Source of the DNA: Blastocatellia bacterium | GTDB lineage: Bacteria; Acidobacteriota; Blastocatellia; RBC074 | Assembly: GCA_043783625.1 (NCBI GenBank) | Contig: JAYVZE010000200.1 | Location: 14,097-78,096 of the forward strand | Direction: 5' to 3' | Length of the DNA stretch: 64,000 nt | Shown here: positions 3,805 through 48,181 of the stretch, piece after piece | Numbering within the stretch: the first letter of the stretch is position 1 | Layout: each line of letters begins with the position of its first letter | Made by a program: the position numbers and the translations under genes | Notes under the pieces: model-generated | Told to the model about the DNA's origin: nothing | Seen by the model: only the letters and a program-made list of their open reading frames with translations | Databases searched by the model: none

Positions 3805-3912
3805 TGCAGAAGCCCGCACACAGTAAGGGCGTCTTTTCTCCACAAGAATTATAGATATTTTTTAGTGCCTTCAAAATGTGAAGGCGCCCTTACTGCGTGC
3901 GGGCTTCTGCAT
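3804..3912. repeat. REP-like palindromic element family 1, copy 2, with inner hairpin gccttcaaaatgtgaaggc
   Basis: Arms atgcagaagcccgcacacagtaagggcgtc and ggcgcccttactgcgtgcgggcttctgcat. Same sequence family as 505..579. Confidence 0.75.
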
Positions 3913-3996
3913 TCTTTCTGCAAAAATAATTGTCAGTTGATAATGGGTAGTTGATAATGTTCCTCGCCAAACTTCTTTCCCCGGAGTTCAAAATTT

Positions 3997-6201: not shown

Positions 6202-6203
6202 TC

Positions 6204-6366
6204 GGAGCGCCAGCATCCTGCTGGCTCCGCGAGCGCGTGCAACGCCGCTCGCGTAACGTGGCGAGGAGTGCGAGTGATTTGCCAGTTAGCTCCCTCACCA
6301 AAAGCATTTGCATCGCTCGCGCTTGCAAACGCAGCAAGCAGGATGCTTGCGCTCCCAGTACGCTCC
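6204..6366. repeat. compound palindromic element carrying two copies of the GCNNGCAGGATGCNNGC(G/A)CTCC hairpin motif, between convergent genes
   Basis: ggagcgccagcatcctgctggctcc at 6204..6228 and gcaagcaggatgcttgcgctcccag at 6331..6355, with further internal hairpins. Confidence 0.6.
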
Positions 6367-6368
6367 AA

Positions 6369-7793
6369 TTATTGCGGAGTAAATTGTTTCAGGCTGATCT
6401 CACTCGCAATCTGCTGACGCGCTTTATTCAGTGAAGAAAATCTTCCCGCCGCGACTGCTTGCACCAACACATTGCCAATCACCGTCGCTTCAATCGGGCC
6501 TGCTAAAACAGGCTTCTTGCAGGCATTTGCGGTCGCTTGATTCAAATAATTATTCAGCGAACCGCCACCCACAATTTGCACGCCGCGAATTAATTTTCCG
6601 GTGAGTTCTTCAATCGTGCGAATGACCGAAGCGTAACGAAGCGCGAGCGAATCAAGAATTATTTTCGCAATAAATGCTGGCTCGTCACTGTTTTTTTGTC
6701 CGCCCTCAATCAGTAATTCTTTGATCGCAGCCAACATACTCGGCGGATTAAAAAGCCGCTCATCATCTGGAAAAATAACAACGGAATCACCTGAAATTTT
6801 TGCGACATCGGCAAGCAATCCATCGTAATCAACGCTCAAGCCTTGTGTCTGCCATTCCTTGCGACAGGATTCCAACAACCACAATCCCATCACATTTTTT
6901 AGAAAACGAATGGTGCCGAATGCGCCACCTTCGTTGGTGAAATTATGTTCGGCAGTTGCGGCATTGATGAGCGGCGCATAAAGCTCTAGGCCGACGAGTG
7001 ACCAAGTGCCCGAAGAAATATATGCCCAGTCGTTTAGCAACGGCGCACCTGCGACTGCGCTGCCCGTGTCGTGCGTAGCGGGTGCAATGACTTTTACATT
7101 GTGCAAATTCAATTCTTCGGCAAGCTCAGGTTTCAAGAATCCAACTTCGTCTCCGGTGGAAATAATCTCAGTGAATAAATGTTGTGGCAGACTGAGCGCA
7201 GCAATAATTTTTTCATCCCACGTGCGGCTTTCCGCATTCACCATTTGCATCGTCGTCGCGTTCGTATATTCCGTGACAGCCTTGCCCGTCAGAAAAAAAT
7301 TTATCAGGTCAGGCATCAGCAAAAGCCTGTCAGCATTGGTCGCAATACCTGCTTTCGCGTGGGCGCAGAGTTGCGAACTGGTGTTGAGCGTCAAAAATTG
7401 AATCCCCGTCCTAGCATAAATTTCTTCACGCGGCAGCTGCTCAAACAGTCGCTCAAAAATATTTGCCGTTCGTTCATCGCGATAACAAATCGGGTCTTCA
7501 ATCAAATTCCCCTGCGCGTCAATTAAGCCATAATCCACTGCCCAACTGTCTACGCCAAGGCTGTGAATAGGGCGTCCGAGCGCATTCGCACGTTTCGCGG
7601 CGGCGGACAATCCAATTTTAATTTCTGAAAATATATGCGTGAAGTCCCAGCGCAAATGTCCATCCAACTGACGCGGCGGATATTGAAAACGATGCGTTTG
7701 CTCCAGTAAAAATTCACCGGATGAAAGTCCAGCCAAAAAGACGCGTCCACTGCCCGCGCCCAGATCAACCGCAATATAAAGAAAGTTATTCAT
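6369..7793 (-). CDS. rhaB: FGGY-family carbohydrate kinase, rhamnulokinase-like
   Basis: N-terminal AVDLGAGSGRV phosphate-1 motif typical of RhaB, FGGY N- and C-domains, 474 aa. Sits in the rhamnose locus. Confidence 0.65.
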   Translation of the reverse strand: MNNFLYIAVDLGAGSGRVFLAGLSSGEFLLEQTHRFQYPPRQLDGHLRWDFTHIFSEIKIGLSAAAKRANALGRPIHSLGVDSWAVDYGLIDAQGNLIEDPICYRDERTANIFERLFEQLPREEIYARTGIQFLTLNTSSQLCAHAKAGIATNADRLLLMPDLINFFLTGKAVTEYTNATTMQMVNAESRTWDEKIIAALSLPQHLFTEIISTGDEVGFLKPELAEELNLHNVKVIAPATHDTGSAVAGAPLLNDWAYISSGTWSLVGLELYAPLINAATAEHNFTNEGGAFGTIRFLKNVMGLWLLESCRKEWQTQGLSVDYDGLLADVAKISGDSVVIFPDDERLFNPPSMLAAIKELLIEGGQKNSDEPAFIAKIILDSLALRYASVIRTIEELTGKLIRGVQIVGGGSLNNYLNQATANACKKPVLAGPIEATVIGNVLVQAVAAGRFSSLNKARQQIASEISLKQFTPQ

Positions 7794-7864
7794 GACAAAA
7801 AATAGAGTGCGGAAAGTAAGAAATTTACTTTCCGCACTCTATTGTATCATCAAGAATCTATCAG

Positions 7865-7938
7865 AGTCAGTACTACCTGCGGTAGCGGGTGGAAGTAGCG
7901 TTGATGCTCACCACCCGCTACCGCAGGTGGTACTGACT
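7865..7938. repeat. REP element family 2 (arms AGTCAGTACCACCTGCGGTAGCGGGTGG), doublet hairpin; same family as the REPs flanking the RAYT gene
   Basis: 28 nt inverted repeat with 18 nt spacer immediately downstream of the receptor stop codon. Confidence 0.75.
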
Positions 7939-7947
7939 TCGCATAAA

Positions 7948-10900
7948 TTAGAAACTAAGCTTCATTACCGCCTGCACCTGACGCCCTGTCGCGCCAAATA
8001 ACAAGCTGGAAATCACACCAGCACTCGCCGTACCAATGGAATTTCCCGGATTCGCAAATTGCGCGTGATTGAATGCGTTGAAGAATTCCACTTTGAATTG
8101 ATGCTCAAAGCGATCACGGAATTTGGTAATTTTCACGAGTGAAAAATCTACGTTGACCTGTTTTGGTCCACGTAAAATGTTACGACCGGAATTGCCATAC
8201 GTGCCAGTTGCGTCTGGCACAATTTGGAAAGCGGCTGTATCAAACCATTTGTCAATCGTAGGAGTGCTCAGCAATCCCGATCCGAGTCGGTTCGGACGAT
8301 TGCCCGTTCCGGTTGAAGCGACACCAACTGATTGGTTGACGCTGAACGGCAGACCTGTGCGAGCCAGGAAAATACCGCTCAATTGCCAGCCACCCAGGAA
8401 TTTATCCACAATGGCATTGTCGCCCGTATTCAGCAGCTTGCCTTTGCCGACAGGTAAATCATACGTCCAGCTTGAACTGAAAGTATGCTTGATGTCGAAA
8501 TCTGAAACAGCGCGATCACGTCTGAAATCATACGCGTTTTGCACTGTGCCTTCTGTGTCGGAAACAACGTCAATTGTTTTGCCGAAAGTGTAGGCATTGA
8601 GGAATTGCAAACCGTTCGAGAAGCGGCTTGAAAATTTCATCAACAAGGCATGGTGATTGGAATCACCGCGACTTTGTACCTGTGACAACGAGCGTAAGCC
8701 TGGTGCCAGAACGATGAAAGGGCGGTTGACGTTGGAGTCAGAGATGCCCACTACCGGCTTCGCCTGATTAATGTCCATCTTGGCAACAAGGTGTGTGCCT
8801 TTGGAGCCAACGTAGGACATTTCCAGCGCGTAGTTTTTGCTGAGCTGTTGCGAGACGTTCAGGTTCCACTGTTGCGCATAACCATCTTTGAAATTCGTCT
8901 CAAAGATAGAGCGCGTTGTGCCTGTCGGAATAGCCGCAGGATTCAGCGCGGGTGGCGCAGGAATACCAGCACTGATTTTGTACAACGGCAAATAGGTGGT
9001 TGTTTGTGAATTGGAAAGCAGGAACGGCGGGCTATTCGCCTTGGAGGACGAAGTACCCGTCAGAGGGTTATTCCAGAAAATTCCATAGCCTCCACGGGCA
9101 ACGGTTTTGCCTTTGCCGAAAACGTCATAAGCAAAACCAATGCGCGGCGCGAAATCTTTTTTGGGAATCGTCTGCAAATAACGACCGACTTTGACACCAC
9201 CGATGGTGGCACTGTCAGACGCTACGATAAAGCGACCGATGCTGGCATCGAAATTCGATTGACGATTATACTGCTCAACATACGGCACAAACAGGTCGTA
9301 ACGTAAGCCTAAATTGACCGTCAACTTGCTGTTCACGCGCCAGTCATCCTGCACATACGCGCCATATTCAGGGCGGCGTTCACCATAAATTCCCTGCATA
9401 AGTCCACGTGTGACACCCGAAGCATAGCCCAGCATAAAGCTGGCAAGCCCAAAGCCGCTGGTTGCATTCTGGCTGCAACCTGACGCAATACCTGCGCAGT
9501 TCGAAGTCAGATTCTGGTTGAAGTTGAAATTTCCAACAATGCTATCAACGTTGAAAATGTTACGACGACGTTTCGTATAGCTACCACCCACTTTGATGGT
9601 ATGCGCGCCGCGTGTGTGGGTCACGTTATCAAAAAACTGGAACGTATCTAAAAACGTGAGCAGAGGTTGATTGCCGTTGGCTCCGAGGTTACGAATGTCA
9701 CCCTGAGCGAAGACAATCTGCGACATCGCGGTTGCCGTGTCCGTAATGTTGACGCCGGGAATTCCGACTGTACTTGCCAGATTTGTTCCGAAATCAATGG
9801 AAGTCACTTTGAACGCGATACGGCTGGCACCAAAGCGAAACTCATTCAACCAGTGTGGATTAATCGTATGCGTATCGTTGATGGCCAAACTTTGTCCGCG
9901 AATCAAACCGTTACCAGCACCGAACGTGGTACCCGCATCACCATGCGGCAAGGTTGCAGGCAGAAAACGATTGGTTCGCTCAAAGCTGTAACGCACAAAA
10001 GCGTGATTTTTCTCGGAAAAATAATGATCAATTTTCGTATCAAATTGATCGTCTTCGCGTTTCAAAACCGGGTTGCTCAGATAATTATTAATGACCTGAC
10101 CGTTCGCGGCGGTGGTTCCCGTCACGTTCGGCAATGGATATAACTGATCAATAATTTTACGTGAAGTCGGGTCAATCATGCTCGCAGGAATAACGTTCCC
10201 AGCAAACGCAGCTTTGGCAACCGGATCATAAATCGTGCGCGTCAATTCCGAAAAATCTCCGGCACGCATTTTCAAAGTTGGAACCGAGGAAAGATAAGTT
10301 TTACCGTCTCGGATTCTGGTTCCTTGATAATCGCCAAAGAAAAATGTTTTGTCGCGGTAGATGCGTCCACCTAACGTCCCACCAAATTGATTTTGCTTGA
10401 ACGGTGGTTTCTTGCGTCCGTTTTTATTATTGAAAAAATCGTTCGCGTCTAAAGCATCATTGCGCAAAAATTCAAACGCATTGCCATGAAAAGCATTTTG
10501 CCCGGATTTGATTTGGATGTTCACCACGCCGCCGCTGGAGCGTCCGAACTCTGCGGAATAGGTGCTGGTTTGCACTTTGAATTCTGCCAGCGCATCAATG
10601 CTGGGGAAGATCACCACCGAGTTCAGCCACGTTTCGTTATTGTCCACGCCGTCGAGCAAAAAGTTATTGTCGCGGGTGCGCATTCCGTTCGCCGAAAACG
10701 AAGCTGATGCACGCCACGCCAGACTGCCTGCGCCGTCAATATTCGCGCCGGGAATTCCGCGCAACACACCAGGCAAAGTTCTGGTCAATTGCACGAAGTC
10801 ACGACCATTCAACGGCAGATTTTTAATTTGTGATTCGTTGATCGTGCCGCTGAGATCAGAGCTATCCGTTTGAATTAAGGGCACTGTGCCTTCAATCTGA

Positions 10901-11241
10901 ATTGTTTCCGTTGCTTGTCCGACTTTCAAAGCGAGATCAATACGCGCCTTTTGGTCAACACCGAGCTGAACATCACTCACGGCTAATTTGCTGAAACCAG
11001 CCATTTCTACCGTGATGTTGTAAGCACCAATCGGCAGCGACGGCGCAATATATTCGCCAGAGCCATCACTGGTCAGCGTCCGTGAAACGCCAGTAGCTTT
11101 TTGCACCAGCGTAATTTTTGCACCAGCAACTGCGGCTCCACTCGGGTCAGTCACTGTGCCGAGAATCGTTCCACTTACTGCCTGTGCAAATGAAGAGGCA
11201 GCAAAAAGTGCCAGGAAGACGAGAGTTAGAAAAATATTCAT
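7948..11241 (-). CDS. TonB-dependent receptor with N-terminal carboxypeptidase-regulatory-like domain
   Basis: Signal peptide, CarbopepD_reg-like N-terminus, plug and 22-strand barrel length. Ends in a C-terminal aromatic residue (KLSF). ATG at 11241 gives a clean signal peptide. Confidence 0.8.
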   Translation of the reverse strand: MNIFLTLVFLALFAASSFAQAVSGTILGTVTDPSGAAVAGAKITLVQKATGVSRTLTSDGSGEYIAPSLPIGAYNITVEMAGFSKLAVSDVQLGVDQKARIDLALKVGQATETIQIEGTVPLIQTDSSDLSGTINESQIKNLPLNGRDFVQLTRTLPGVLRGIPGANIDGAGSLAWRASASFSANGMRTRDNNFLLDGVDNNETWLNSVVIFPSIDALAEFKVQTSTYSAEFGRSSGGVVNIQIKSGQNAFHGNAFEFLRNDALDANDFFNNKNGRKKPPFKQNQFGGTLGGRIYRDKTFFFGDYQGTRIRDGKTYLSSVPTLKMRAGDFSELTRTIYDPVAKAAFAGNVIPASMIDPTSRKIIDQLYPLPNVTGTTAANGQVINNYLSNPVLKREDDQFDTKIDHYFSEKNHAFVRYSFERTNRFLPATLPHGDAGTTFGAGNGLIRGQSLAINDTHTINPHWLNEFRFGASRIAFKVTSIDFGTNLASTVGIPGVNITDTATAMSQIVFAQGDIRNLGANGNQPLLTFLDTFQFFDNVTHTRGAHTIKVGGSYTKRRRNIFNVDSIVGNFNFNQNLTSNCAGIASGCSQNATSGFGLASFMLGYASGVTRGLMQGIYGERRPEYGAYVQDDWRVNSKLTVNLGLRYDLFVPYVEQYNRQSNFDASIGRFIVASDSATIGGVKVGRYLQTIPKKDFAPRIGFAYDVFGKGKTVARGGYGIFWNNPLTGTSSSKANSPPFLLSNSQTTTYLPLYKISAGIPAPPALNPAAIPTGTTRSIFETNFKDGYAQQWNLNVSQQLSKNYALEMSYVGSKGTHLVAKMDINQAKPVVGISDSNVNRPFIVLAPGLRSLSQVQSRGDSNHHALLMKFSSRFSNGLQFLNAYTFGKTIDVVSDTEGTVQNAYDFRRDRAVSDFDIKHTFSSSWTYDLPVGKGKLLNTGDNAIVDKFLGGWQLSGIFLARTGLPFSVNQSVGVASTGTGNRPNRLGSGLLSTPTIDKWFDTAAFQIVPDATGTYGNSGRNILRGPKQVNVDFSLVKITKFRDRFEHQFKVEFFNAFNHAQFANPGNSIGTASAGVISSLLFGATGRQVQAVMKLSF

Positions 11242-11539
11242 ATTCCCGAAAAATCGGGAATGCTTAGGATGGATCATTTGTATCTCCTTGAGAGTTTCGT
11301 TGATAGATAAATCACTTCATAGCAAAGATTGGCGGAAATATCCTTCTATTCAAAAGGTGATTTGCAAAACTCCCGACAAAGCTGATTTGAGTTTTTTTGA
11401 TTACTACTTTTTGGCAATCAGATTAATTCTTATTAGTAACACAACGCCTACGCATTTTCGTGCAACAATGGAATGAAGTATACCGCAATAAACTGCGTAC
11501 ACAAAATCATTGACCAATAATTAATGATTATAATGCAGG

Positions 11540-12838
11540 CTAAACAATTCCGGCTGAGATTCCAATTGCTGCCGGACGCTCTTCGGCTTTGTGCTGACGA
11601 TATTGGCTGGCGCGATAAACAGCTAACGGATCAATCGCACCACCGGCGTTTTGCCGTGCTTTCGCAATGATCGGCGCAACATCCATCGTGAACGCTTGCT
11701 TCAAAGTTTGCAGCGCAACCATGGCATCGCCTTTTTCCTGTGCTTCACGCAGGGCATCGCGATCTACCAAATGTGCCTGAACGAAGGCGCGCTGCAGTTC
11801 GACGGCACTCATCATCAATGATTCAATCGGGTCGGTGACGTTATGCGATTGATCCAGCATGTACGCTGGGTTGAAATCGGGCGTGCCGTCCAATTCTGCG
11901 TCTACGAGTTCGTTGAAAATCAAAAATAATTGGAATGGTTTGATCGAACCTGCGTCCAAATCATCATCGCCATATTTGCTGTCGTTGAAATGGAAGCCAC
12001 CGAGCTTACCCGCTTGAATTAAACGTGCGACGATCATTTCGATGTTGACATTCGGCGCGTGATGACCGAGGTCAACTAAGCATTGCGCTTTTGGCCCCAG
12101 TTGCGTAGCGCAAAAATAATTTGTCCCCCAATCATTAATCACAGTCGAGTAAAACGCGGGTTCATACATTTTGTGTTCCATAAACACGCGCCAATCATCC
12201 GGCAATGCTGCATAAATTTCGCGCATACTTTCAAGGTAACGTTCCAATGTTTTGCGAAAATTTTGTTGCCCTGGAAAATTCCCACCATCGCCAATCCACA
12301 CCGTATGCGCTTTGGAGCCGAGTGATTTTCCAATCTCAATGCACTCAATATTATGCTCAACAGCTTGCGCACGTACCGCAGCATCAGGATGCGTCAGGCT
12401 GCCGAATTTATAAGAAAATTTTTGCTCGGCCTGATCCTGAAATGTATTGGAATTCATCGCGTCAAAAGTTAAGCCGCGTTCATTCGCAAAAGATTTCATC
12501 GTCGCTACATTGTCAGGTTTATCCCACGGAATGTGCAGCGAAACCGCCGACGTAGCACGAACTAATTGATTAATCGTCGCGCAGTCTGCCAATTTTTCAT
12601 AAATCCCGCGTGGTTCGCCAATCCCTGGAAAACGAGCAAAGCGCGTGCCGCCCGTGCCTACGCCCCACGAAGGCACTGCGACCTGAAACGCTTGCGCACG
12701 TGCGGTGAGGTCTTCGATGTTGAGGTTACGGCGTTGTAATTGTTTGCCGAGATGTTCGTAATCTTCTTCGAGCCAGGGTTTGGCTTTATTATTTTGTTCG
12801 GCAATAAAATTTTCGTTAATTTCAAAAGGTGCAGTCAT
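11540..12838 (-). CDS. L-rhamnose isomerase (xylose isomerase-like TIM-barrel, Pseudomonas stutzeri L-RhI type)
   Basis: About 430 aa, conserved VAVPSWGVGTGGTRFARFPG and HIPWDKPD segments. Adjacent to kinase and aldolase. Alternative start at 12865. Confidence 0.6.
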   Translation of the reverse strand: MTAPFEINENFIAEQNNKAKPWLEEDYEHLGKQLQRRNLNIEDLTARAQAFQVAVPSWGVGTGGTRFARFPGIGEPRGIYEKLADCATINQLVRATSAVSLHIPWDKPDNVATMKSFANERGLTFDAMNSNTFQDQAEQKFSYKFGSLTHPDAAVRAQAVEHNIECIEIGKSLGSKAHTVWIGDGGNFPGQQNFRKTLERYLESMREIYAALPDDWRVFMEHKMYEPAFYSTVINDWGTNYFCATQLGPKAQCLVDLGHHAPNVNIEMIVARLIQAGKLGGFHFNDSKYGDDDLDAGSIKPFQLFLIFNELVDAELDGTPDFNPAYMLDQSHNVTDPIESLMMSAVELQRAFVQAHLVDRDALREAQEKGDAMVALQTLKQAFTMDVAPIIAKARQNAGGAIDPLAVYRASQYRQHKAEERPAAIGISAGIV

Positions 12839-12887
12839 AATTTCATTCCATATATCCGCCAACATTAAGTGCAGATGTTGATCTACA

Positions 12888-12963
12888 CCACCCGCTACGA
12901 CAGCGGTTACTGTGGCGTTGCAGTCGTGGCAGTTGAGTCAGTACCACCTGTGGTAGCGGGTGG
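12888..12963. repeat. REP element family 2 (degenerate left arm, intact right arm) flanking the RAYT gene
   Basis: Right arm agtcagtaccacctgtggtagcgggtgg, left arm ccacccgctacgacagcggttactgtgg. Confidence 0.65.
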
Positions 12964-12974
12964 TAGATTTTCCA

Positions 12975-13484
12975 TCAATCAAACTCTGGCAGATCATCAC
13001 CCTGCCCATTAAGAACATAATCAACGGCACGCTCTACACTCCGTTCATTCCATAAATAGCGAGTACTTCCTTTGTCCGCCCAAGGGCTTCGCTTAAGCAA
13101 CCATAGTCCATCTTGTTTCAGTTGTCTTGTAGCATTTGCTTTCAGCGCATTGAGCGCAAGCTCAACAGATTTTTCTCCGATACAAACAACAACATGAACA
13201 TGATTGGTACGGATGTTAAGTGCATAAATGTCCCATTTTCGGAAACCACACGTTTCGCGGACAGCAGTCTCAACTGAAGAACGATGAGTCGCCTCTAGTT
13301 TTACAGGTTCACAAACGAGCTTGCCTTCATTGTATTCGCGCCACTTCTCATTAGTCGGAATATATGGCGAACGATATTTATTATTAAATCGATTTATTGA
13401 GCCGCGTTCGTCACCATGTAGCCACGTTCCGTAACAACGAAACGTGATTAAGTAGGCAAGTGGGATTTCCGTGTTATTCCACAT
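12975..13484 (-). CDS. REP-associated tyrosine transposase (RAYT), IS200/IS605-like HUH Y1 transposase
   Basis: 169 aa, HUH motif TNHVHVVV, catalytic Tyr context RAVDYVLNGQ, flanked on both sides by family-2 REP palindromes. Confidence 0.75.
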   Translation of the reverse strand: MWNNTEIPLAYLITFRCYGTWLHGDERGSINRFNNKYRSPYIPTNEKWREYNEGKLVCEPVKLEATHRSSVETAVRETCGFRKWDIYALNIRTNHVHVVVCIGEKSVELALNALKANATRQLKQDGLWLLKRSPWADKGSTRYLWNERSVERAVDYVLNGQGDDLPEFD

Positions 13485-13543
13485 GATTTGTTTATGTCAG
13501 TGTTGTCGCTACCGATGATACCGACTCTAACTATGCTGCAACG

Positions 13544-13628
13544 ATTGAGTCAGTACCCGCTGCGGTAGCGGCGGGTTTTCTTTAGACAAGAGCTGCCACC
13601 CGCTACCGCAGGTGGTACTGACTCAATC
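13544..13628. repeat. REP element family 2 doublet flanking the RAYT gene
   Basis: Arms gagtcagtacccgctgcggtagcggcggg and ccacccgctaccgcaggtggtactgactc with extended outer pairing gattgagtcagtac / gtactgactcaatc. Confidence 0.7.
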
Positions 13629-13629
13629 G

Positions 13630-15819
13630 CTATCGCAAAAACCCGTCCTGCAATCCACCATCTACCGGAATCACATGCCCGGTAGTCTTACCCAAACGCT
13701 TCGTCACCAGCAAAAATATTGCTTCGGCTTGATCGTCGGGTTCAATGGCAACTTGCGTGAGCGTACGCTTGGCGTAAAAATTCGCCAGTTTATCGCGCAA
13801 CGTTTCCGTATCTTCGTCTTCGCTGAATTTAATTTCATATTTCGCCAGCGAAGCGATCACGCGATCACGCGGGAACATCGTGCTTCCCTTCACTACCGTA
13901 GCAGGCGCAACCGCATTCACGCGCACGAGCGGCGACATTTCAATCGCCAGTTCACGCACTAAATGATTCGCGGCGGCTTTGCTGGTGTCGTACGCTAGGC
14001 TTCCCTTTTTCGCTACGACGGCGTTTGCACTGGTGGTCAGCACAATGTTGGAAGGCAAGCCTTGCCGCTTGAAAACTTTGTTCGCTTCGTCAGCAACGAT
14101 GTACGCGCCCGTCACGTTAATGGCGAAAGTTTTATCCCATAAATTATCGGGGATATATCCAGCTTTATCAGGCGGAACAAAAATTCCGGCAGTTACGACT
14201 ACGGCATCAATTCCGCCGTAAGCGAGCATCACATCCGCGAACATTTTCTGCACGCTTTCACGATTTGTGATGTTGCAGGCAAGGCCAATCGCAGGGCCGC
14301 AATTGCTGATGCCTGTGCCAGCCACGCCAATGCCTTCGCCGTATTGCTTGATAATTTCCTGCGCAGTTTCTTTGGCGGAAGTTTCATCAAGGTCTACGCA
14401 AACGATGTGTGCACCTTCTTTGACCAAACGATGCGCAGTAGCTTTGCCGATGCCCGCGCCTGCGCCGATGACGACGTGGATTTGACGATCCAATTCTTTT
14501 TCGGCGGGCATTCGTCGCAGCTTGGCTTCTTCGAGCAACCAATATTCGATGTCGAAAGCTTCCTGCTGATCCATCGCTTCGTATTGGTCAATGGCCTCTG
14601 CGCCGCGCATCACTTCAATCGCGCAGTTATAAAATTCGGCAGCCACGCGAGATTCACTTTTGTTTTTTCCAAATGCGATCATGCCGATGCCAGGGATTAA
14701 AACTACGGTTGGATTAGCGTCGCGCATCGCGGGCGAATCGGGATGTTTGCAGCGGTCATAATACGCCGCGTAATCTTTGCGATATTGCACGATGCCCGTT
14801 TCGATCAATGTTTTCAAAGCTCCGATGTCACCGCTGACAGGATTCCAGTCAATAAATAACGGCTTGATCTTGGTACGCAAAAAATGATCGGGACACGACG
14901 TGCCGAGTTCAGCAAGGCGCGGCGCGTCTACGCTATTCACAAAACGCAACATTTTCGGATCGTCCTGCACAGTGCCAATCATGCGTTTATTTGACGAAAC
15001 CTTTCCGCGCAGCCAGGGCAACAAATCAACTAATAATTTTTGACGTTCGGCTTCGGGTAACGCCTGATGTTTTTGTCCGCCAAAAGTTTTTTCGCCTTTA
15101 TCTTTTGATTCGATATAACGCGCCGCCGTGTCAATAATTTCCAGCGCAGTTTCATAACAAGTCTTGTCGTTATTCGCCCACGAAGACATGCCGTGATGAC
15201 CAAGCACAATGCCTTTGGCTTTTGGGTTGTCGGCGATCATTGATTCAATAATTAAGCCAATATCAAAGCCCGGACGTTGCCACGGAATATATAAAACTTC
15301 GTCGCCAAAAATTTCTTTCGTCAAACGTTCCTGATTGACAGAAGCAGCGATGGCGATGACGGCGTTCGGATGCAAATGGTCTACGTGCTTGAATGGCACG
15401 AACGTATGGAGCGGCGTATCAATCGAACAAGCGCGTGGATTCAGGTTATATACACAATGATTGTAAAGCGGAACCATCGCGTCTTCGATTTCCGTCTTCG
15501 CGCCTTTGTTCGGATGATTCGTGTACAGCGGTTTCATCGCGCGAACTTTGTCGAGATAGAGCGAAGCAAAGCCGTCGCACTTCGCCGTGCGCAAATCACC
15601 GCCGGAGCCTTTGATCCATAAGACTTCAACGTCTGCGCCGGTGAGCGGGTCTTTTTCCATCAGCTTTGACGAAGTGTTGCCGCCGCCCGTATTCGTCAGC
15701 GTCAAATCATCGCCGAGCCGATTGGAGCGATAGACGAGACGATCTGCGCCGGATAATTTGTCGGCTTCTTCGTCTTTCCAAAGATATTGTACGTGTTGAT
15801 AAGAATCTTTTTTACTCAT
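13630..15819 (-). CDS. bifunctional rhamnulose-1-phosphate aldolase / short-chain alcohol dehydrogenase (class II aldolase-adducin domain fused to SDR)
   Basis: N-terminal aldolase domain starting MSKKDSYQHVQYLWKD with GGGNTS motif. C-terminal SDR with Rossmann GxGxxG and YxxxK-type active site. ATG at 15819 has GGAGGC 13 nt upstream. Confidence 0.7.
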   Translation of the reverse strand: MSKKDSYQHVQYLWKDEEADKLSGADRLVYRSNRLGDDLTLTNTGGGNTSSKLMEKDPLTGADVEVLWIKGSGGDLRTAKCDGFASLYLDKVRAMKPLYTNHPNKGAKTEIEDAMVPLYNHCVYNLNPRACSIDTPLHTFVPFKHVDHLHPNAVIAIAASVNQERLTKEIFGDEVLYIPWQRPGFDIGLIIESMIADNPKAKGIVLGHHGMSSWANNDKTCYETALEIIDTAARYIESKDKGEKTFGGQKHQALPEAERQKLLVDLLPWLRGKVSSNKRMIGTVQDDPKMLRFVNSVDAPRLAELGTSCPDHFLRTKIKPLFIDWNPVSGDIGALKTLIETGIVQYRKDYAAYYDRCKHPDSPAMRDANPTVVLIPGIGMIAFGKNKSESRVAAEFYNCAIEVMRGAEAIDQYEAMDQQEAFDIEYWLLEEAKLRRMPAEKELDRQIHVVIGAGAGIGKATAHRLVKEGAHIVCVDLDETSAKETAQEIIKQYGEGIGVAGTGISNCGPAIGLACNITNRESVQKMFADVMLAYGGIDAVVVTAGIFVPPDKAGYIPDNLWDKTFAINVTGAYIVADEANKVFKRQGLPSNIVLTTSANAVVAKKGSLAYDTSKAAANHLVRELAIEMSPLVRVNAVAPATVVKGSTMFPRDRVIASLAKYEIKFSEDEDTETLRDKLANFYAKRTLTQVAIEPDDQAEAIFLLVTKRLGKTTGHVIPVDGGLQDGFLR

Positions 15820-15872
15820 TAAAAAAATCAAGCCTCCATCTCTTCTTTCGAGATTATGCGTTCGTTTTCGTA

Positions 15873-18800
15873 TTATTTCTTTTCCCACACTTTGACCGGA
15901 CCAAGCAAGCCCGATGGTAACAATGGTGAATTTGCCTGATAAAAAGGCATCGTCGTATAAGTAATTTTGTTCGTCATATTCGGCTGCTGATCGCCGATGA
16001 GCCGATTCACCCACAAATTCGTCACCTTCACTTCCAACTTATTTTCCCCTTTTTTAACTGCACTGGAAACGTCTATGGTGAAGGACTGTTTCCAAAGAAT
16101 GCCCAAATTTTTTCCATTCACAATTACCTCCGCTAAATTCTTCACCGCGCCTAAATCAATTTCAATTCTTGTTCCTTTAGCAATGACCGGAAGGCTGAAG
16201 GTGGATTGATACGTTGCAGTCCCTGAAAAATATTTGATGCCCGCGTCAGGATTTTCCGTCCACGATTGCAGGGCGGTAAGAGTCGTTGTTGCGGGTGCGC
16301 CGCGCTCTGCTTGAAATGTTACTTTCCAGGGATTCGTAATTGTGGCGATTTGTTTTTCGACGGTTTTTGGTTGGGTGTAAGAAGCAACGGTTGCTTTGCC
16401 TTTGAAGATAACAAAAATAGCGTCATTCGGCTCTAAACGAAGCGGAATGATTGTTCGTCCATCTTTGATTTGAAACGAAACTTTTTCCATTTGCCCATTT
16501 TCGGGATGCCAGATTTCCGGCGTTTTACCTGTAACTCTGAAGCTCGTTTCAATCGCTTCAACCCGATCCTTTCTGTTGTTGATCCAATAAATTTCACGGT
16601 CGGGTAAGGTGCGATGTACGGATAAAATTTCTGTATCGTTGGTTAGTTTTGCGTAGGTGAAATCCGCTTGAATATTTTTCGCGGCGAGCGTTTGTTCTAG
16701 CGACTGCGCCTGAAAAACATTTTTATTATCGCTGCTCCAAACTTCGGCAACAATTGTTTTGAACTCTGCCTGATTGTCGCTCAAGCTCGCATTTTTTTCG
16801 GGCTTGATGCCTGTGATTGTGGCTCCGGCTTTCACCAAATCTCTGATTTTGTGCAGGACTGGCAGCGACATGTTTTTCGCATTTTCATCCAGTGCCAAAA
16901 CCTGATAGCTCATCCCACTGGGCGTCCCAATCTTGCCGTCTTTCACTGACAACACATTTATCAAGGCATCTGCATTAACGAAATCAAAGCTATAGCCTGC
17001 GGGAATGTTCGGTAATTTTTTGCCGAATAACGCGGTGATGTTGTTGTCTTCGCCGTAGTAATACAGCACATCAGCGACAAATTTTCCTTGCTGTAACAGA
17101 TAAGAACTGCGGCTCAAATAATCCGTCCAAGCCTTTGCCTGTTCCCCCCAGGTTTCATGCCGCGTGAACCATTGACCGAATGGCCCAAGGCCTAAACCAG
17201 GAATTTTTTGATCGGAAGGTTGATGCACCGAGGTATGAATGACGAAGCGATTTAAGCCGCTCGCCAGTTCAAGATCAGCCGTCGGTTTTAAATTTTCCGG
17301 CGAATAAGACCACGCCGAGCCGCCTACGCCGAGTGCCGTGAGCGATTCGGCAGCCACTAAATTTTGACCATAGATATGAGCGACAGCAGCAGATTCTAAA
17401 ATATCGGCGCGATGCCCTGTTTGGTCGCCTTGGTTGATTGGTCCCGGCGTCCAAATGGCGGACATTGGCACATCGGCTTTGCGCTTCACTTCCATCCCGT
17501 CAGCAATCATCGCACGACCGTTTTCGTGCGATTCGCTGTATCTGCCCATTCCGCGTTTGTGGAGCAAATCACCGAGTTGATCGTAATGATTTTCCGCGAT
17601 TAAATCAGCCAGCGTTTTTCTGAAGTCCCACAAAAATTGTTCGCTCGCTTCCGTGCTTTTGATGATCTTTCCGGTGAGTACAGGCATCCACGGCTTCAAA
17701 TCATAGCCGCGTCGCCTGGCAAATTCTGCCATCAGATTTTTCGTCCAGTTTGCGCCACCTGCTTCATAACTGTCTGTGACGAGGTATTGCACACCTTTTT
17801 TGCCCATCAATCCGCCTGTCGCATTTTTGTATTGGTCGAGATAATTTTCAAAATAATCTTTGACGGCTTGCGCGTCGAGTTTGTCTACTTCCAAGCCCGT
17901 AGCTTCGGGCGAAGCCGGGTGATTTTCAATGCCGAGCAATGAATATCCCATCCGCAACACAACCCAATTTCCAGCGGGAGCCACCCATTCAAGCGTGCCG
18001 TCCGATTTCATTTTGGAAGTTACATCCACCACATCATTCGTGGGAATTGCATCGGTTGTTTCAGGAGTGATGAATTTTGCCAATTCACCTGACGGTGTAA
18101 AACCTGCTTTCTCTTCCAAACGATTTACGCGGTACGCCGTATGCAAAACGATTTCGGCAACGTCCGTTCCTTTGGGTTTCATGTCCCCCATCGGCAGCCC
18201 CATCATCGCCGCAATCATATTCGGTTGCGGCGGAAGAGTTTTGAAATTGACGCGAAAAAACTTCGCCGTGACTGGAGCAAACGTCAGTGAATTCTGCGGA
18301 ATTTGCGTCGTTGGAATTTGCAAAATCTGTCGAAAATTTATTCCATCATCGCTGGCTTCCAACGTACGATTGCTGACCGCTTCACCAAATTGCGAAGCCG
18401 GTTCTCCGCCAACAATTGTCAGGGCTTTGAAGGTTTGTAGTTGCGCAAATTCAAATTGTATCCACGCGTTTTGTCCGATGGCGGCGGGCGGCAACAATGA
18501 CGATTTTGCGAGGTCGTCATCGGTCAATGCACTAACCTCAAATTGTCCGCCGCTGGAAGAAATTTTCGGATTCAATTCGCGCAAGGAAAGATCAGCTTCA
18601 GGAACACGATAGGCAATAACAACAGTATCTTCGTAAAATGTATGCGCAGGATTCGCTTCGTGCAGAAGCCCCAACGGATCACGAAAAGGAATGTTTTGAA
18701 ATGCTCCAGTTACACCAGAAGGCTGCGGTAATTTGCCAAAAAATGTTTGCCCGCCTTTGATGCGTGTTTCCGTCCAGACATATTTTTTCATGCCGTCTTT

Positions 18801-19217
18801 GGCGGGAACCCACGGGCCGCCGCTTTCGCTCCAACCGGGCGAACCTGCGATTGCCATTTCCAATCCTAATTTGTCGGCGAGTTCCGTCGTGAATTTAAAA
18901 GCGTCTTTCCACTCCGGCGTCATGTAAATTAATCGTTTGTCCACTACCTGCGGCGTGAATAAACTCGCATCAAAATTTTGAAAGCCTCCGATGCCGACGC
19001 GTTTCATCCATTCAAGGTCTTTTTGAATTCCTACTTTCGTGATGTTGCCGTTCATCCAATGCCACCATACGCGTGGCTTGGCGGCATCGGGTGGATTTTG
19101 GAAGCCTTGCATTAACGGATCGGTTTGTCCGATAGCGCTGCGTTCTGAAATTATTCCAGCGATGCTAACGACAACTAGCAGGCAAATTAAAAGGCGGATG
19201 AAATAGTGCTTTCTCAT
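15873..19217 (-). CDS. secreted large glycoside hydrolase, GH106-like (putative alpha-L-rhamnosidase)
   Basis: Signal peptide and N-terminal PRVWWHWMNGNITKVGIQKDLEWMKRVGIGG motif characteristic of this family. 1114 aa. Located in the rhamnose locus. Family assignment is from motif memory. Confidence 0.5.
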   Translation of the reverse strand: MRKHYFIRLLICLLVVVSIAGIISERSAIGQTDPLMQGFQNPPDAAKPRVWWHWMNGNITKVGIQKDLEWMKRVGIGGFQNFDASLFTPQVVDKRLIYMTPEWKDAFKFTTELADKLGLEMAIAGSPGWSESGGPWVPAKDGMKKYVWTETRIKGGQTFFGKLPQPSGVTGAFQNIPFRDPLGLLHEANPAHTFYEDTVVIAYRVPEADLSLRELNPKISSSGGQFEVSALTDDDLAKSSLLPPAAIGQNAWIQFEFAQLQTFKALTIVGGEPASQFGEAVSNRTLEASDDGINFRQILQIPTTQIPQNSLTFAPVTAKFFRVNFKTLPPQPNMIAAMMGLPMGDMKPKGTDVAEIVLHTAYRVNRLEEKAGFTPSGELAKFITPETTDAIPTNDVVDVTSKMKSDGTLEWVAPAGNWVVLRMGYSLLGIENHPASPEATGLEVDKLDAQAVKDYFENYLDQYKNATGGLMGKKGVQYLVTDSYEAGGANWTKNLMAEFARRRGYDLKPWMPVLTGKIIKSTEASEQFLWDFRKTLADLIAENHYDQLGDLLHKRGMGRYSESHENGRAMIADGMEVKRKADVPMSAIWTPGPINQGDQTGHRADILESAAVAHIYGQNLVAAESLTALGVGGSAWSYSPENLKPTADLELASGLNRFVIHTSVHQPSDQKIPGLGLGPFGQWFTRHETWGEQAKAWTDYLSRSSYLLQQGKFVADVLYYYGEDNNITALFGKKLPNIPAGYSFDFVNADALINVLSVKDGKIGTPSGMSYQVLALDENAKNMSLPVLHKIRDLVKAGATITGIKPEKNASLSDNQAEFKTIVAEVWSSDNKNVFQAQSLEQTLAAKNIQADFTYAKLTNDTEILSVHRTLPDREIYWINNRKDRVEAIETSFRVTGKTPEIWHPENGQMEKVSFQIKDGRTIIPLRLEPNDAIFVIFKGKATVASYTQPKTVEKQIATITNPWKVTFQAERGAPATTTLTALQSWTENPDAGIKYFSGTATYQSTFSLPVIAKGTRIEIDLGAVKNLAEVIVNGKNLGILWKQSFTIDVSSAVKKGENKLEVKVTNLWVNRLIGDQQPNMTNKITYTTMPFYQANSPLLPSGLLGPVKVWEKK

Positions 19218-19247
19218 ATTTTTTCTGACGATCAGTCAGCTCATTTT

Positions 19248-19814
19248 TTATTTGGTTTTCCAAACGCTCGCGTATTTTTTTCGGTATTTAGGATCAGTTT
19301 CGGTTTCGATGAATGCCAGTGCGGTTTCCTGAATTTTTTTGTCCGGCACTGCGTCAAAAAGTTTTTTCAGCGCAACGCAAATATCGTAGCGAAACAGTGT
19401 GCCATTTTTTTCAGTAGCGCATTCCTTAAACCGCAGCGTGTAACCACCCAGCACCAGTTGTAAGTATTTTTTGTTCACACGCCCGATTTTCCAAAGTGCT
19501 TGCAATGAATGACGCGCGGTCACGGTTCGTTCATCTCTGGTCACCGCCAACAATACGTCAAAATCTTTCAGCATTTTATTTTTCGGATCGCTTTGCGCGA
19601 GTTCACTTAAAAATTGCACAGCAATCGTACGCTGATGATTATCGCCGTTGCGCGTCATTTCTTTCAGCTCATCCCACACGTCATACGCCCAATCCACGGG
19701 GCTTTTGGCGAGCGTGAGTAATTCTTGAAATGCCGCGTAACGAACGTTCGCATCTTTTGAATGTAGCAAATCAGCTTTTGTGCGTAAGTCGGCATTCATA
19801 ATTTTTATCTTCAC
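19248..19814 (-). CDS. hypothetical alpha-helical (HEAT/AlkD-like repeat) protein
   Basis: 188 aa all-helical repeat pattern, 4 nt overlap with the upstream SGNH gene. No confident family call. Confidence 0.35.
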   Translation of the reverse strand: MKIKIMNADLRTKADLLHSKDANVRYAAFQELLTLAKSPVDWAYDVWDELKEMTRNGDNHQRTIAVQFLSELAQSDPKNKMLKDFDVLLAVTRDERTVTARHSLQALWKIGRVNKKYLQLVLGGYTLRFKECATEKNGTLFRYDICVALKKLFDAVPDKKIQETALAFIETETDPKYRKKYASVWKTK

Positions 19815-21127
19815 CGTTTCTTCGCAGCAGCAGCTTTAGGAGCAAAGATCGTCAAATCAATCGCATTCGCCATCGCTTCATATCCCGCATCGCCCGGATG
19901 CAACCAATCTCCTGCGTGAAAGGCTTCCATAAATTTTTTAGGATTTTTCGGATCACGTGTCGCCGCATCGAAATCAACTACGCCGTCGAACGCGCCACTG
20001 GTGCGAATCCATTGATTGACAGCGGTGCGCGCGGCTTCGCCTTTTTCAGTGAATGCACGCGAACCATCAAACGGAGTCAGCGTGCAACCGATAATTTTCA
20101 AGCCGCGTGCGTGTGCGTGTTCGATGATTTGTTTGTATCCCGTGAGCAAATCTTCAGCAACGGCTTTCGCGTCTGCTTCCGGCTGACGGGTGCGCCCACT
20201 AATGTCATTAATGCCTTCCATTAACAGCACAAATTTTACGCCGGGCTGCGTCAGGACATCACGTTCCAGTCGCGCCAGCGCGCTCATTCCACCCAGCACG
20301 CCGCCTCCATCACGCAACACCTGATTGCCGGAAATGCCTACATTCACGACGCCAAAATTCACAGTGCGTTTGTCAGCCTGTAAGCGTTTAGTGAAATAAG
20401 CAGGCCACGTATGATCTGTGTTCGGCATTGAGCCGTGTCCGTCGGTAATTGAATCGCCAAACGCCACGATTGTCGCAGCGTTGGCGGGAGCGAGAACATC
20501 AATGCCCGCGAGCCAGTAATACGCCAGCGAAGTCGTCGCCGCAGCAATTTCTGCGCTGCCGGAAAAATCGCCTTCCTTCGATAAATAAGCAGTATGTTCG
20601 CCAAACAAATGCGTACTCGTCGTGCTTTCTTTTGGCACAAACATACTCACAGCAATTTCGGCTAACGGAGCAACCGTTAAATCTACTGGATCGCTCAACA
20701 TCACCGCTCCCGGCGGAATTAAGCACGAAGAACGACCACTAAATTTCAGTACGCGATCTGAAGCGGGAATAATAGCGGAATCATTTTTGCGTAGCGCAAT
20801 ATGTGCGGCTCCAATTTCCAACGGCTTGCTGCCGAAAGCATTCACCAATCGAATTCGTACGCTACGCCCGCCAACACTGCCCCTGACGATCATTCGTACC
20901 GTTTGATTATTGACGCTTGACCACATTGATGGAATTGCCAGATTGACGGGCGGCGGCGGATTTTGCGGCGGACGCGGTGCGGTCGGGCCGTTGTAAATTA
21001 TTTGCTGCGCAGTTCCCCACGTAGCAACCCAATGTTCACCGTTTGATTGCGCCACAATCGCAAAATTCAAGCCAACCAATAGCAAAACCAGCAAGAATAT
21101 TTTTTGTTGAGTTTTCATGTTTTTCAT
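19811..21127 (-). CDS. secreted SGNH/GDSL hydrolase (carbohydrate acetylesterase-like) with N-terminal beta-sandwich domain
   Basis: Signal peptide. Block I FGDSITDG with catalytic Ser. C-terminal DWLHP block with Asp/His. Confidence 0.7.
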   Translation of the reverse strand: MKNMKTQQKIFLLVLLLVGLNFAIVAQSNGEHWVATWGTAQQIIYNGPTAPRPPQNPPPPVNLAIPSMWSSVNNQTVRMIVRGSVGGRSVRIRLVNAFGSKPLEIGAAHIALRKNDSAIIPASDRVLKFSGRSSCLIPPGAVMLSDPVDLTVAPLAEIAVSMFVPKESTTSTHLFGEHTAYLSKEGDFSGSAEIAAATTSLAYYWLAGIDVLAPANAATIVAFGDSITDGHGSMPNTDHTWPAYFTKRLQADKRTVNFGVVNVGISGNQVLRDGGGVLGGMSALARLERDVLTQPGVKFVLLMEGINDISGRTRQPEADAKAVAEDLLTGYKQIIEHAHARGLKIIGCTLTPFDGSRAFTEKGEAARTAVNQWIRTSGAFDGVVDFDAATRDPKNPKKFMEAFHAGDWLHPGDAGYEAMANAIDLTIFAPKAAAAKKR

Positions 21128-21210: not shown

Positions 21211-21392
21211 CTCCAACGGAGCGAAATACAATAGCCCAGGGTGCAACCCTGGGTAGGATCAGAAATAGAATCCAAGCCCTGAAGGGGCGAAATAAATTAT
21301 TGCGCCCTTTCAGGGCTTGATTTTTTCCGTGCAATCAACCCAGGGTTGCACCCTGGGCTATTGTATTGCCACCCCTTCGGGGTTCTGTTCGG
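21211..21392. repeat. about 180 bp nested-palindrome element (family 3), copy 1
   Basis: Outer IR atagcccagggtgcaaccctggg / cccagggttgcaccctgggctat, inner IR gccctgaaggggcg / cgccctttcagggc, terminal ccaacggagcg. Second copy at 24091..24286. Confidence 0.7.
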
Positions 21393-24039: not shown

Positions 24040-24090
24040 AGCTGACCTGTTGATTTGCGATAGCATTTCAAAAAATGCTCTTCCGAATAG

Positions 24091-25321: not shown

Positions 25322-25385
25322 AAATTCTTCCTCCAAAACTGTAAAAAACATTACGCAAGGAATCGCTTTCTTGTTACGATCTCCT

Positions 25386-25444: not shown

Positions 25445-25445
25445 C

Positions 25446-39082: not shown

Positions 39083-39150
39083 AGATAAAAGGTAATTTTG
39101 TTACGACGAAGATATTATTTGAGTCTAAGTCAGGCAAAAAATAACGCCCC

Positions 39151-48163: not shown

Positions 48164-48181
48164 GAATTTTCTCCGGTTTAG

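Follow-up and report, generated by a model that had tools for sequence, protein, structure and literature searches.

The block at positions 6369–21127 of a 64 000-nucleotide stretch (hereafter the window) of contig JAYVZE010000200.1, from a soil-type acidobacterium of the class Blastocatellia, is a genuine L-rhamnose utilization gene cluster. Every gene from 6369 to 32999 in the open reading frame (ORF) map lies on the minus strand, and this array ends at a convergent S9 peptidase gene at ~6201. The ORF map and profile searches agree on eight genes in the block, at the coordinates and in the order given by an initial annotation of the sequence: an SGNH esterase, a helical protein, a glycoside hydrolase (GH) family 106 rhamnosidase, a bifunctional rhamnulose-1-phosphate aldolase/dehydrogenase (RhaEW), a transposase-like gene, L-rhamnose isomerase (RhaI), a TonB-dependent receptor (TBDR1), and a rhamnulokinase-type kinase (RhaB). 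Viewed with its surroundings, the block probably forms the catabolic part, at one end, of a mosaic locus for L-rhamnose/rhamnoglycan utilization that extends further along the same strand (~6369–31686), with TBDR1 as a self-contained importer cassette in a variable slot between RhaI and RhaB. Homologs of TBDR1 and RhaI-containing loci came nearly all from metagenome-assembled genomes of Blastocatellia or Pyrinomonadaceae, and the closest RhaI match in the searchable genome set had 93% identity. Signal peptides are present in the esterase, the GH106 protein, TBDR1, and three products of the upstream genes described below, namely a second receptor (TBDR2), a tetratricopeptide repeat (TPR) protein, and a beta-propeller protein.

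The catabolic core is the standard RhaI/RhaB/RhaEW pathway and is ordinary in its composition. RhaI (11540–12865) is of the rhizobial/Pseudomonas stutzeri type (TIGR02629, 707 bits; cutoff 646.75). RhaEW (13630–15819), the L-rhamnulose-1-phosphate aldolase/L-lactaldehyde dehydrogenase, matched both NF006189 (1081 bits; cutoff 634) and TIGR02632 (1004 bits; cutoff 568) and belongs to an enzyme family validated experimentally (PMC3870299). A profile check for other sugar families favored rhamnose, with isomerase and aldolase both above curated cutoffs, as the initial annotation had it. The RhaEW ORF runs from 13630 to 16014 and would give 794 amino acids from a GTG codon; this version appears over-extended because relatives start at MSK and are 729 amino acids long, and translation most likely begins at the MSKKD codon (15819), giving that same length. 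RhaB (6369–7793) belongs to the FGGY family, with TIGR02627 as its best model (461 bits) and fuculokinase as the second-best family (138 bits), and is kept downstream of RhaI in 55 acidobacterial loci. The clustering is not due to chance, because RhaEW-RhaI-RhaB synteny recurs in these 55 loci. No RhaM mutarotase was found in the window by tblastn with an E. coli RhaM sequence, a query that gave strong matches in three related loci (L072, L069, and L042; loci of relatives are designated L plus a number). In a Pyrinomonadaceae rha locus (L057, 13275–16232), three ORFs between RhaB and an ATP-binding cassette (ABC) transporter were read as LutABC-like genes for lactate utilization from N-terminal sequence and ORF sizes; if that reading holds, it would fit L-lactate as the end product of RhaEW. 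The window has no such genes.

Two exported degradative enzymes precede the core, and the view of the block as an L-rhamnose utilization locus equipped with a GH106 enzyme and a carbohydrate esterase was borne out. The GH106 alpha-L-rhamnosidase (15873–19217), with a signal peptide apparent from its sequence, is a full-length family member (PF17132, 1134 bits, profile positions 1–742 of 743) that also matches the solved members 6Q2F (987 bits over residues 32–1112) and BT0986 (5MQM, 447 bits). The esterase (19811–21127) combines a carbohydrate-binding module (CBM)-like N-terminal domain with an SGNH domain (Lipase_GDSL_2, E = 1.8e-30), and both domains are covered by its match to PDB entry 7TOG (274 bits, residues 31–428). 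This likeness places it as a putative member of the FjoAcXE-like two-domain family. The SGNH acetylesterase of the initial annotation is better described as such a two-domain esterase, and assignment to CE12, as a rhamnogalacturonan acetylesterase, was rejected given the 7TOG match. Its catalytic-serine motif is GDSI (FGDSITDG) and not the GNSI of the family, which was characterized on acetylated glucuronoxylan (PMC9105624). L009 (87% identity) and L010 (79%) also have the esterase gene in synteny with rha genes.

Between the two lies the gene for a 183-amino-acid cytoplasmic ARM/HEAT-repeat protein (19248–19799 within ORF 19248–19814, the start being set by its family), which is probably a passenger. 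It had no sequence match in Pfam, NCBIfam, or PDB, and its own family is 54–60% identical across phyla, including Cystobacter and Terrimonas. The AlphaFold2 (AF2) model is an all-alpha solenoid (predicted local distance difference test (pLDDT) 96.9) that only designed armadillo repeats match. The gene also adjoins a GH106 gene in L014.

As initially annotated, a TonB-dependent receptor separates the isomerase and kinase genes. TBDR1 (7948–11277) consists of a signal peptide, a CarboxypepD_reg extension (PF13620, 73.3 bits, residues 37–118), a weak plug, and a large barrel (PF25183, 846 bits) ending in Phe. The Oar subclass of TonB-dependent transporters (TBDTs) is defined by such an N-terminal CarboxypepD_reg extension before the plug (PMC6434023), and the PF13620 domain of TBDR1 precedes its plug. 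By analogy with residues E118/I122 of Oar, ETIQI at residues 124–128 is a candidate TonB box. Sequence searches detected no solved structure for TBDR1 in PDB. The AF2 model (mean pLDDT 72, barrel mostly 70–95) matched YddB, FusA, PirA, and FepA, among other solved TBDTs, with a Foldseek probability of 1.0, and is consistent with a 22-strand-type outer-membrane barrel; for the best matches, YddB and FusA, the TM-score was 0.40 when query-normalized and ~0.55 when target-normalized. Among NCBIfam models, neither TBDR1 (only 18.5 bits to FCYXU) nor the two other receptors of the window, TBDR2 and TBDR3, matched SusC/RagA.

The position of TBDR1 is best judged from what relatives carry there. We searched 80 RhaI loci, and loci fetched through TBDR1, with the window proteins by tblastn; the 55 acidobacterial loci with both RhaI and RhaB formed a census of the slot. 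Their core order is RhaEW-RhaI-[slot]-RhaB. The slot is empty (<300 bp) in 42/55 loci and holds small inserts of 300–1000 bp in three. A Pfam-confirmed GH78 rhamnosidase of ~930 amino acids, in some cases accompanied by an SGNH esterase and a macro-domain gene, fills it in 8/55 loci, an inverted GH106 gene in one, and a TBDR1 ortholog in one (L005). The window likewise has the receptor in its slot, as does L010, on a contig that stops within the receptor gene. L005 repeats the order GH106-RhaEW-RhaI-TBDR1-RhaB of the window with a receptor 82% identical, and has ABC permease genes at the position of the esterase and the helical protein. The nearest relatives by RhaI and RhaEW, L008 and L009 (93–95%), have no receptor in the slot, and L009 is otherwise like the window, convergent S9 peptidase included. 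TBDR1 is an uncommon occupant of a variable slot, limited to these three genomes, and its embedding is not a conserved design.

A model in line with the initial annotation makes TBDR1 a dedicated outer-membrane receptor for rhamnose or its oligosaccharides, transcribed together with RhaI and RhaB and integral to a SusD-less polysaccharide utilization locus (PUL). It draws on the common orientation of the receptor and the two catabolic genes around it, on the retention of the arrangement in three genomes (window, L005, and L010) at 82–84% receptor identity, and on the rhamnosidases found elsewhere in the slot, with the ortholog in L007 followed by a GH106-family gene. The wider distribution of the receptor speaks against it. 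Among ~19 orthologs obtained at 59–84% identity, most lie outside rhamnose loci. Besides the rhamnose slot and L007, the contexts comprised GntR and GH2 (L003); a polysaccharide lyase, GH31, and DUF5696 (L096); a GH88-like gene with an enolase-superfamily gene (L090, L095); an enolase-superfamily gene with no GH88-like gene in view (L092 and L097, apparently of the L090/L095 lineage, as their flanking genes are near-identical); DUF5696 (L088); DUF5597 (L089); other receptors only (L093, L094); and no sugar genes (L002, L004, L006). In a neighbor-joining tree TBDR1 forms one lineage in which the embedded receptors of the window, L010, and L005 interleave with those of L006 and L096, so that orthologs equally identical to that of the window (82–83%) occur in other contexts. 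TBDR1 is thus conserved while its neighboring genes change. A rhamnose-specific orthologous group was accordingly rejected. Together with the empty slots of L008 and L009, with the expression signals described next, with the lack of a candidate operator, and with a receptor that is not SusC-type, this makes a dedicated rhamnose receptor unlikely, if still a serious possibility.

TBDR1 looks transcriptionally self-contained at the level of sequence patterns, with its own 5′ region, gene, and terminator-like hairpin. The 262-bp region ahead of it (11278–11539, minus strand) is AT-rich and carries a strong AAGGAG ribosome-binding site, and its blocks TTTATTGCGGTATAC, TCAGCTTTGTCGGGAGTTTT, and AACTCTCAAGGAGAT are common to L010 and to the non-rhamnose ortholog L006. 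An Rfam scan revealed no riboswitch or leader before TBDR1, only Acido-Lenti-1 repeats matching anywhere in the window, and the window has no tRNAs. Downstream, the minus-strand interval between TBDR1 and RhaB (7801–7938) contains a doublet of repetitive extragenic palindromes (REPs; 7864–7938), followed by a perfect hairpin with a 19-bp stem and a T-run (7843–7801). The T-run stops 7 nt short of the RhaB ATG, too close for a Shine–Dalgarno sequence to fit between them; an analogous hairpin and T-run precede RhaB in L005. The hairpin at 7801–7843 could be a TBDR1 terminator or a RhaB attenuator.

Such autonomous-looking signals would also suit a mere passenger, perhaps an importer of some non-carbohydrate nutrient, that settled in a permissive slot and has no functional tie to the locus. 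Orthologs without sugar genes nearby (L002, L004, L006) point the same way, as does the tolerance of the slot for unrelated small ORFs (L009, L014) and, in several loci, for macro-domain genes beside GH78. Yet ~8/13 independent ortholog contexts adjoin carbohydrate-active genes, and a carbohydrate role of TBDR1 is therefore likely; moreover, the large cargo of the slot is otherwise rhamnoside-related. We give a mere passenger little chance of being right. A link of TBDR1 to rhamnosides is plausible but not specific, and rhamnoside specificity cannot be inferred; the receptor reads as an accessory glycan-importer cassette and not as a proven rhamnose receptor.

A second set of genes, upstream of the block, is tied more closely to rhamnose. 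A strong candidate for the regulator of a rhamnose/rhamnoglycan regulon, judged from its domains and synteny, is encoded at 30532–31686 (minus strand). It joins an IclR-type winged helix-turn-helix (HTH; HTH_IclR, E = 1e-9) to a type-I periplasmic-binding-protein (PBP) sugar-binding domain (Peripla_BP_4, E = 1e-18), has no signal peptide, and matches only sugar-binding proteins in PDB by sequence. Database entries name this IclR-HTH::PBP type "substrate-binding domain-containing protein" or "ribose transport system substrate-binding protein". Next in the array come the Oar-class receptor TBDR2 (26693–30037, minus strand; PF25183, 728 bits, plus CarboxypepD_reg) and the exported TPR protein (25446–26615, minus strand), which matches many TPR Pfam families and has a signal-peptide-like N-terminus. 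In L010, L012, L015, and L162–164, TBDR2 orthologs at 78–87% identity have the regulator, the TPR gene, or rha/rhamnosidase genes as neighbors, while the TBDR2 matches in L072 are fragmentary (47–64%). The TPR gene lies directly downstream of every TBDR2 ortholog found (window, L010, L012, L015, L072, and L162–164). The TPR protein was considered as a SusD homolog and rejected, as sequence gave no support and it is a canonical TPR protein.

The relatives display this module in several combinations with the rha genes. L010 has regulator (94%)-TBDR2 (87%)-TPR (90%)-SGNH (79%)-RhaEW-RhaI-TBDR1, and L009 has beta-propeller (93%)-SGNH (87%)-RhaEW-RhaI-RhaB. In L012 and L015, TBDR2-TPR is followed at some remove by RhaEW-RhaI-RhaB, with a DUF1479 gene (84%) just before RhaEW in L015; in L019 the regulator (74%) directly precedes RhaEW. 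The distant high-GC acidobacterium L072 carries regulator-TBDR2-TPR-GH78, divergent from RhaI-RhaM. Since loci selected through RhaI are a biased sample, three regulator orthologs were looked up independently, and all three adjoin rhamnose or rhamnogalacturonan genes. P0278 (75%), in a context as in L162, heads regulator-TBDR2 (78%)-TPR (63%)-FG-GAP protein-GH78-GH106; P0250 (79%), as in L165, heads regulator-RhaEW-RhaI-RhaB; and P0325 (70%), as in L167, is divergent from a rhamnogalacturonan (RG-I) lyase. TBDR2 is the receptor most consistently tied to rhamnose genes.

Two candidate operators lie upstream of TBDR2. Box 1 (30458–30474; ATTCCGATATATGGAAT on the plus strand) follows the palindrome RTTCCG-N5-CGGAAY; box 2 lies at 30382–30398, with a conserved TTGC (−35-like) block ~30 bp beyond it. 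In five aligned loci (window, L010, L162, L165, and L019) such boxes occur in pairs 76–79 bp apart just downstream of the regulator gene, conserved amid otherwise diverged intergenic DNA. L167 has a pair 86 bp apart upstream of the regulator, and one box is visible in L015. By position weight matrix (PWM), the two boxes are the sole matches above 18 bits in 64 kb, the next best scoring 13.2 bits, within the shuffle range. Pattern and PWM scans located no candidate operator before TBDR1, the SGNH gene, GH106, RhaI, or RhaB.

The means by which sugar crosses the inner membrane is presumably encoded outside the region covered. The block itself contains no inner-membrane transporter, regulator, or SusD-like gene, exactly as initially annotated; the further expectation that uptake and regulation are encoded elsewhere stood for the transporter, which is absent from the whole 64 kb, and failed in part for regulation, given the candidate regulator 9.4 kb upstream of the block. 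Pfam scans of the window ORFs revealed no transporter family, no stop-to-stop ORF of at least 80 amino acids in 64 kb had at least three transmembrane (TM)-like segments, and the 5.7 kb of sequence following position 64000 contains no transporter. As a positive control, the same TM scan was run on the two ABC permeases of L070 and returned nine segments for each. TonB-ExbB-ExbD is likewise not encoded in the window by Pfam and TM scans. The lack of any ORF with at least three TM segments is unusual for ~45 genes; the window encodes mostly exported or outer-membrane proteins and cytoplasmic enzymes.

Many relatives do have a transporter at hand. An ABC system comprising an ATPase, a permease, and a permease::binding-protein fusion is present in the fetched stretch of 34/68 related loci and directly abuts rha genes in L070 and L048; a LacI-type regulator occurs in 8 of the 34. 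The IclR-PBP regulator and the ABC genes never share a fetched stretch (~10 kb around the regulator), although the L048 contig carries both, further apart. Acidobacterial rha loci appear to come in two flavors, and the window represents the receptor/regulator flavor.

In known terms, the closest concept for this locus is a partial CUT locus. CUT loci (carbohydrate utilization loci containing TBDTs) of Xanthomonas and Caulobacter unite a TonB-dependent receptor, degradative enzymes, an inner-membrane transporter, and a regulator, and in "partial CUT loci" the missing parts are encoded elsewhere (PMC1790865). The window resembles them in clustering TonB receptors (TBDR1 and TBDR2) with carbohydrate-degrading enzymes (GH106 and the esterase) and a candidate sugar-related regulator, without SusD; the sugar-binding domain and rha-linked synteny of the 30532–31686 gene make it that candidate. 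The locus is "partial" because its neighborhood holds no inner-membrane transporter. It differs from described CUT loci in its acidobacterial host, in its two Oar-class receptors (CarboxypepD_reg plus PF25183 barrel), in the IclR-HTH::PBP architecture of its candidate regulator, and in including a full monosaccharide catabolic operon. With the SusC/SusD PULs of Bacteroidota it shares a TBDT with a carboxypeptidase-regulatory-like extension near exported glycoside hydrolase and esterase genes, here the GH106 protein (1134 bits) and the SGNH esterase as co-localized carbohydrate-active enzymes; unlike them, the window has no SusC/RagA match, no hybrid two-component system, and no ECF (extracytoplasmic function)/anti-sigma regulator. 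No SusD/RagB-type Pfam family occurs in the 38 scanned ORFs of at least 150 amino acids across the window. The likeness to a SusD-less PUL thus survives as far as the absence of SusD, but the receptor is Oar-class (PF13620 plus PF25183), not SusC/RagA, and no other PUL-specific feature accompanies it. The RhaI-RhaK/B-RhaEW loci of Rhizobiales, Chloroflexi, Actinobacteria, and Bacilli (PMC3870299) have the same enzyme set, recruited rhamnosidases, and, as in relatives of the window, an ABC transporter. The window neighborhood differs from them in having neither mutarotase nor transporter and in its IclR-HTH::PBP candidate regulator; the surveyed rhamnose regulators belong to the AraC, DeoR, or LacI families, and that survey mentions neither TonB nor Acidobacteria (PMC3870299). 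A literature search returned nothing relevant on acidobacterial TBDR–rhamnose loci or on the IclR-HTH::PBP regulator type. Novelty lies in three details: Oar-class receptors in an acidobacterial host, a slot of modular content, and the candidate regulator/operator with the TBDR2-TPR pair.

The affinity to Oar raises the question of direction. By its description, Myxococcus xanthus Oar has a signal peptide, a CarboxypepD_reg extension, a plug with a TonB box, and a large barrel, an arrangement that the receptors here share, with a weak plug and a candidate TonB box in TBDR1; Oar is implicated in protein secretion during development and needed for secretion of the protease PopC (PMC6434023), whereas the receptors here lie among carbohydrate genes. 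Oar-class receptors acting outward might release the exported GH106 enzyme and the esterase to the medium. TBDR1 shares the N-terminal extension (PF13620)-plug-barrel architecture described for Oar (PMC6434023), the spacing of its E124/I128 mirrors the TonB-box residues E118/I122 of Oar by sequence, and its best structural matches, YddB and FusA, are protein-handling TBDTs. But a secretion role is documented for only one Oar-class protein, the likeness rests on how Oar has been described, the structural matches to YddB and FusA reach only modest TM-scores (0.40 and 0.55), and linkage of TBDTs with carbohydrate-active enzymes is generally explained by import (PMC1790865). An outward action is scarcely credible on this balance.

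We hypothesize instead that the locus works in the direction of uptake. Rhamnose-containing glycans or glycosides would enter through the Oar-class TonB-dependent transporters, with TBDR2 and its TPR partner as the conserved route and TBDR1 as an extra, lineage-specific one. In the periplasm, the FjoAcXE-like esterase would strip acyl groups and GH106 would free L-rhamnose, which may then reach the cytoplasm via a transporter encoded outside the 64 kb; in many relatives the adjacent ABC system with the permease::binding-protein fusion could serve this step. RhaI, RhaB, and RhaEW would convert L-rhamnose to dihydroxyacetone phosphate and L-lactate. The IclR-HTH/sugar-binding regulator may act at the twin RTTCCG-N5-CGGAAY boxes to control at least the head of the array. 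The TBDR1 cassette would have landed in the variable RhaI-RhaB slot, which is elsewhere filled by rhamnosidase or esterase cargo.

Several observations weigh against this proposal, which as a whole is built on homology and synteny. The 461 bits of RhaB fall below the 528-bit equivalog cutoff of TIGR02627. In TBDR1, the plug match (PF07715, 22.0 bits) stays under the gathering score of 23.9, and the AF2 model has a pLDDT below 50 over most of residues 120–261, the expected plug region. The independent TBDR1 contexts number only ~13, some of them on short contigs. The TBDR2, TPR, and regulator contexts from L010 to L072 were found through RhaI and are biased, leaving only three unbiased contexts. 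The PWM training set included the two sites of the window itself, and a search allowing up to two mismatches gave no excess of the motif across the window (16 occurrences versus 12 expected). Control of the catabolic genes by the regulator is unproven because they lie 10–24 kb downstream of the boxes, past several palindromic repeats. A scan for sigma-70 promoters gave 22 sites, no excess over shuffles (mean 18.8), and therefore we defined no transcription units from it; the 37 terminator-like sites exceed shuffles only modestly (mean 25.3, SD 5.0).

The same upstream genes permit a bolder reading, in which regulator-TBDR2-TPR is a distinct acidobacterial glycan-capture module, a counterpart of PULs specialized for rhamnose-containing glycans, and TBDR1 is a swappable extra receptor that widens the substrate range. 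A cytoplasmic IclR-HTH::sugar-binding transcription factor at twin palindromic operators would be coupled to an Oar-class transporter, and the TPR protein would be the substrate-binding or lid partner of TBDR2, a functional analog of SusD. We regard this as speculative and quite unlikely.

Mobile and repeated elements add to the mosaic character of the array. Between RhaEW and RhaI lies an insertion (12877–13629) with a Y1 (HUH) transposase-like gene resembling REP-associated tyrosine transposases (RAYTs; 12975–13484, minus strand; Y1_Tnp, 27.9 bits, gathering score 23; NCBIfam REP_Tyr_transpos, 23.7 bits, cutoff 80), with REP palindromes on both sides (doublets at 12877–12966 and 13542–13629; repeats D3, D5, I3, I12, and I22). 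The doublet core is CCACCTGCGGTAGCGGGTGG. Across the 64 kb, the sole further copy is the doublet at 7864–7938, which separates TBDR1 from RhaB. Doublets of a similar kind are present at varied positions in four other rha loci (L039, L047, L055, L060), in L039 and L047 with one in the RhaEW-RhaI gap. The RAYT-like insertion is specific to the window and absent in L005, L009, and L010. REP/RAYT activity as the cause of the TBDR1 insertion was rejected, since L005 and L010 carry TBDR1 without a RAYT or these REPs.

Upstream of the esterase, a DUF1479/Gig2-like protein (21451–22695) and an FAD-linked oxidase (22702–24150) are encoded on the minus strand (Pfam/NCBIfam). Three copies of the Acido-Lenti-1 RNA motif (Rfam RF01687; 21209–21253 (−), 21339–21384 (+), and 24232–24276 (+); 38.8–43.4 bits, all above the gathering score) form inverted repeats (I1, I2, I5) bracketing this pair. 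In L009 the pair is missing from this position, where the SGNH gene is next to that for the beta-propeller. A DUF1479 gene adjoins RhaEW in L015, and L162 has the FAD oxidase gene close to its regulator. Here the RNA motif behaves as a palindromic repeat marking the edge of an insertion would. The first ~33 codons of the oxidase ORF overlap an inverted-repeat arm (24050–24137) next to an Acido-Lenti-1 copy, and Met38 is followed by RKRTFLK, a Tat (twin-arginine translocation)-like motif; the true start is probably at 24039, in which case the enzyme would be periplasmic, exported via Tat from Met38. The exported YncE/lactonase-like beta-propeller protein (24311–25351, minus strand; Pfam and NCBIfam beta-propeller matches) has a 93% identical ortholog directly upstream of the SGNH gene in L009.

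Two further palindromic repeat families were observed in the window, one (AATGCAGAAGCCCGCAC...) at 501–579 and 3803–3916, the other (GGAGCGCCAGCATCCTGCTGGC / GCAGGATGC...CTCCCAGTA) at 1891–1960, 6198–6361, 25424–25446, and 57105–57212. Most copies of both lie in intergenic gaps, such as the convergent junction of RhaB and the S9 peptidase. The remainder of the window encodes a third Oar-class receptor (TBDR3, 33425–36703; PF25183, 731 bits) and a second GH106-family protein of 1029 amino acids (60810–63899, from precomputed Pfam assignments). Periplasmic dehydrogenases occupy 37397–43112 (a GSDH-type sugar dehydrogenase::cytochrome c, an FAD monooxygenase-like protein, a pyrroloquinoline quinone-dependent dehydrogenase, and a cytochrome c). 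Plant cell-wall enzymes follow at 43175–52863 (GH3, an alpha-L-arabinofuranosidase (Alpha-L-AF_C), GH43 with a ricin-type lectin domain, and two putative esterases), and genes for aromatic/CoA-dependent catabolism at 52946–58748 (fumarylacetoacetate hydrolase, a PaaA/PaaC-like protein, enoyl-CoA hydratase, and an AMP-dependent ligase).

The candidate regulator, with its predicted operator, is of a family outside the AraC, DeoR, and LacI rhamnose regulators surveyed previously (PMC3870299). Confirmation of regulator and receptors could allow the re-annotation of many entries now named "ribose ABC substrate-binding protein" or "carboxypeptidase regulatory-like domain protein". Close relatives offer a natural presence/absence series, with the slot empty or filled by GH78 or TBDR1, and with the ABC-LacI or the regulator-TBDR2-TPR flavor of the locus. 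Acidobacteria rank among the most abundant soil bacteria. To our knowledge they have no SusC/SusD systems, yet they encode many Oar-class receptors of unknown substrate. How they capture glycans from plants and microbes is poorly understood, and this locus and its relatives provide a concrete, testable case.

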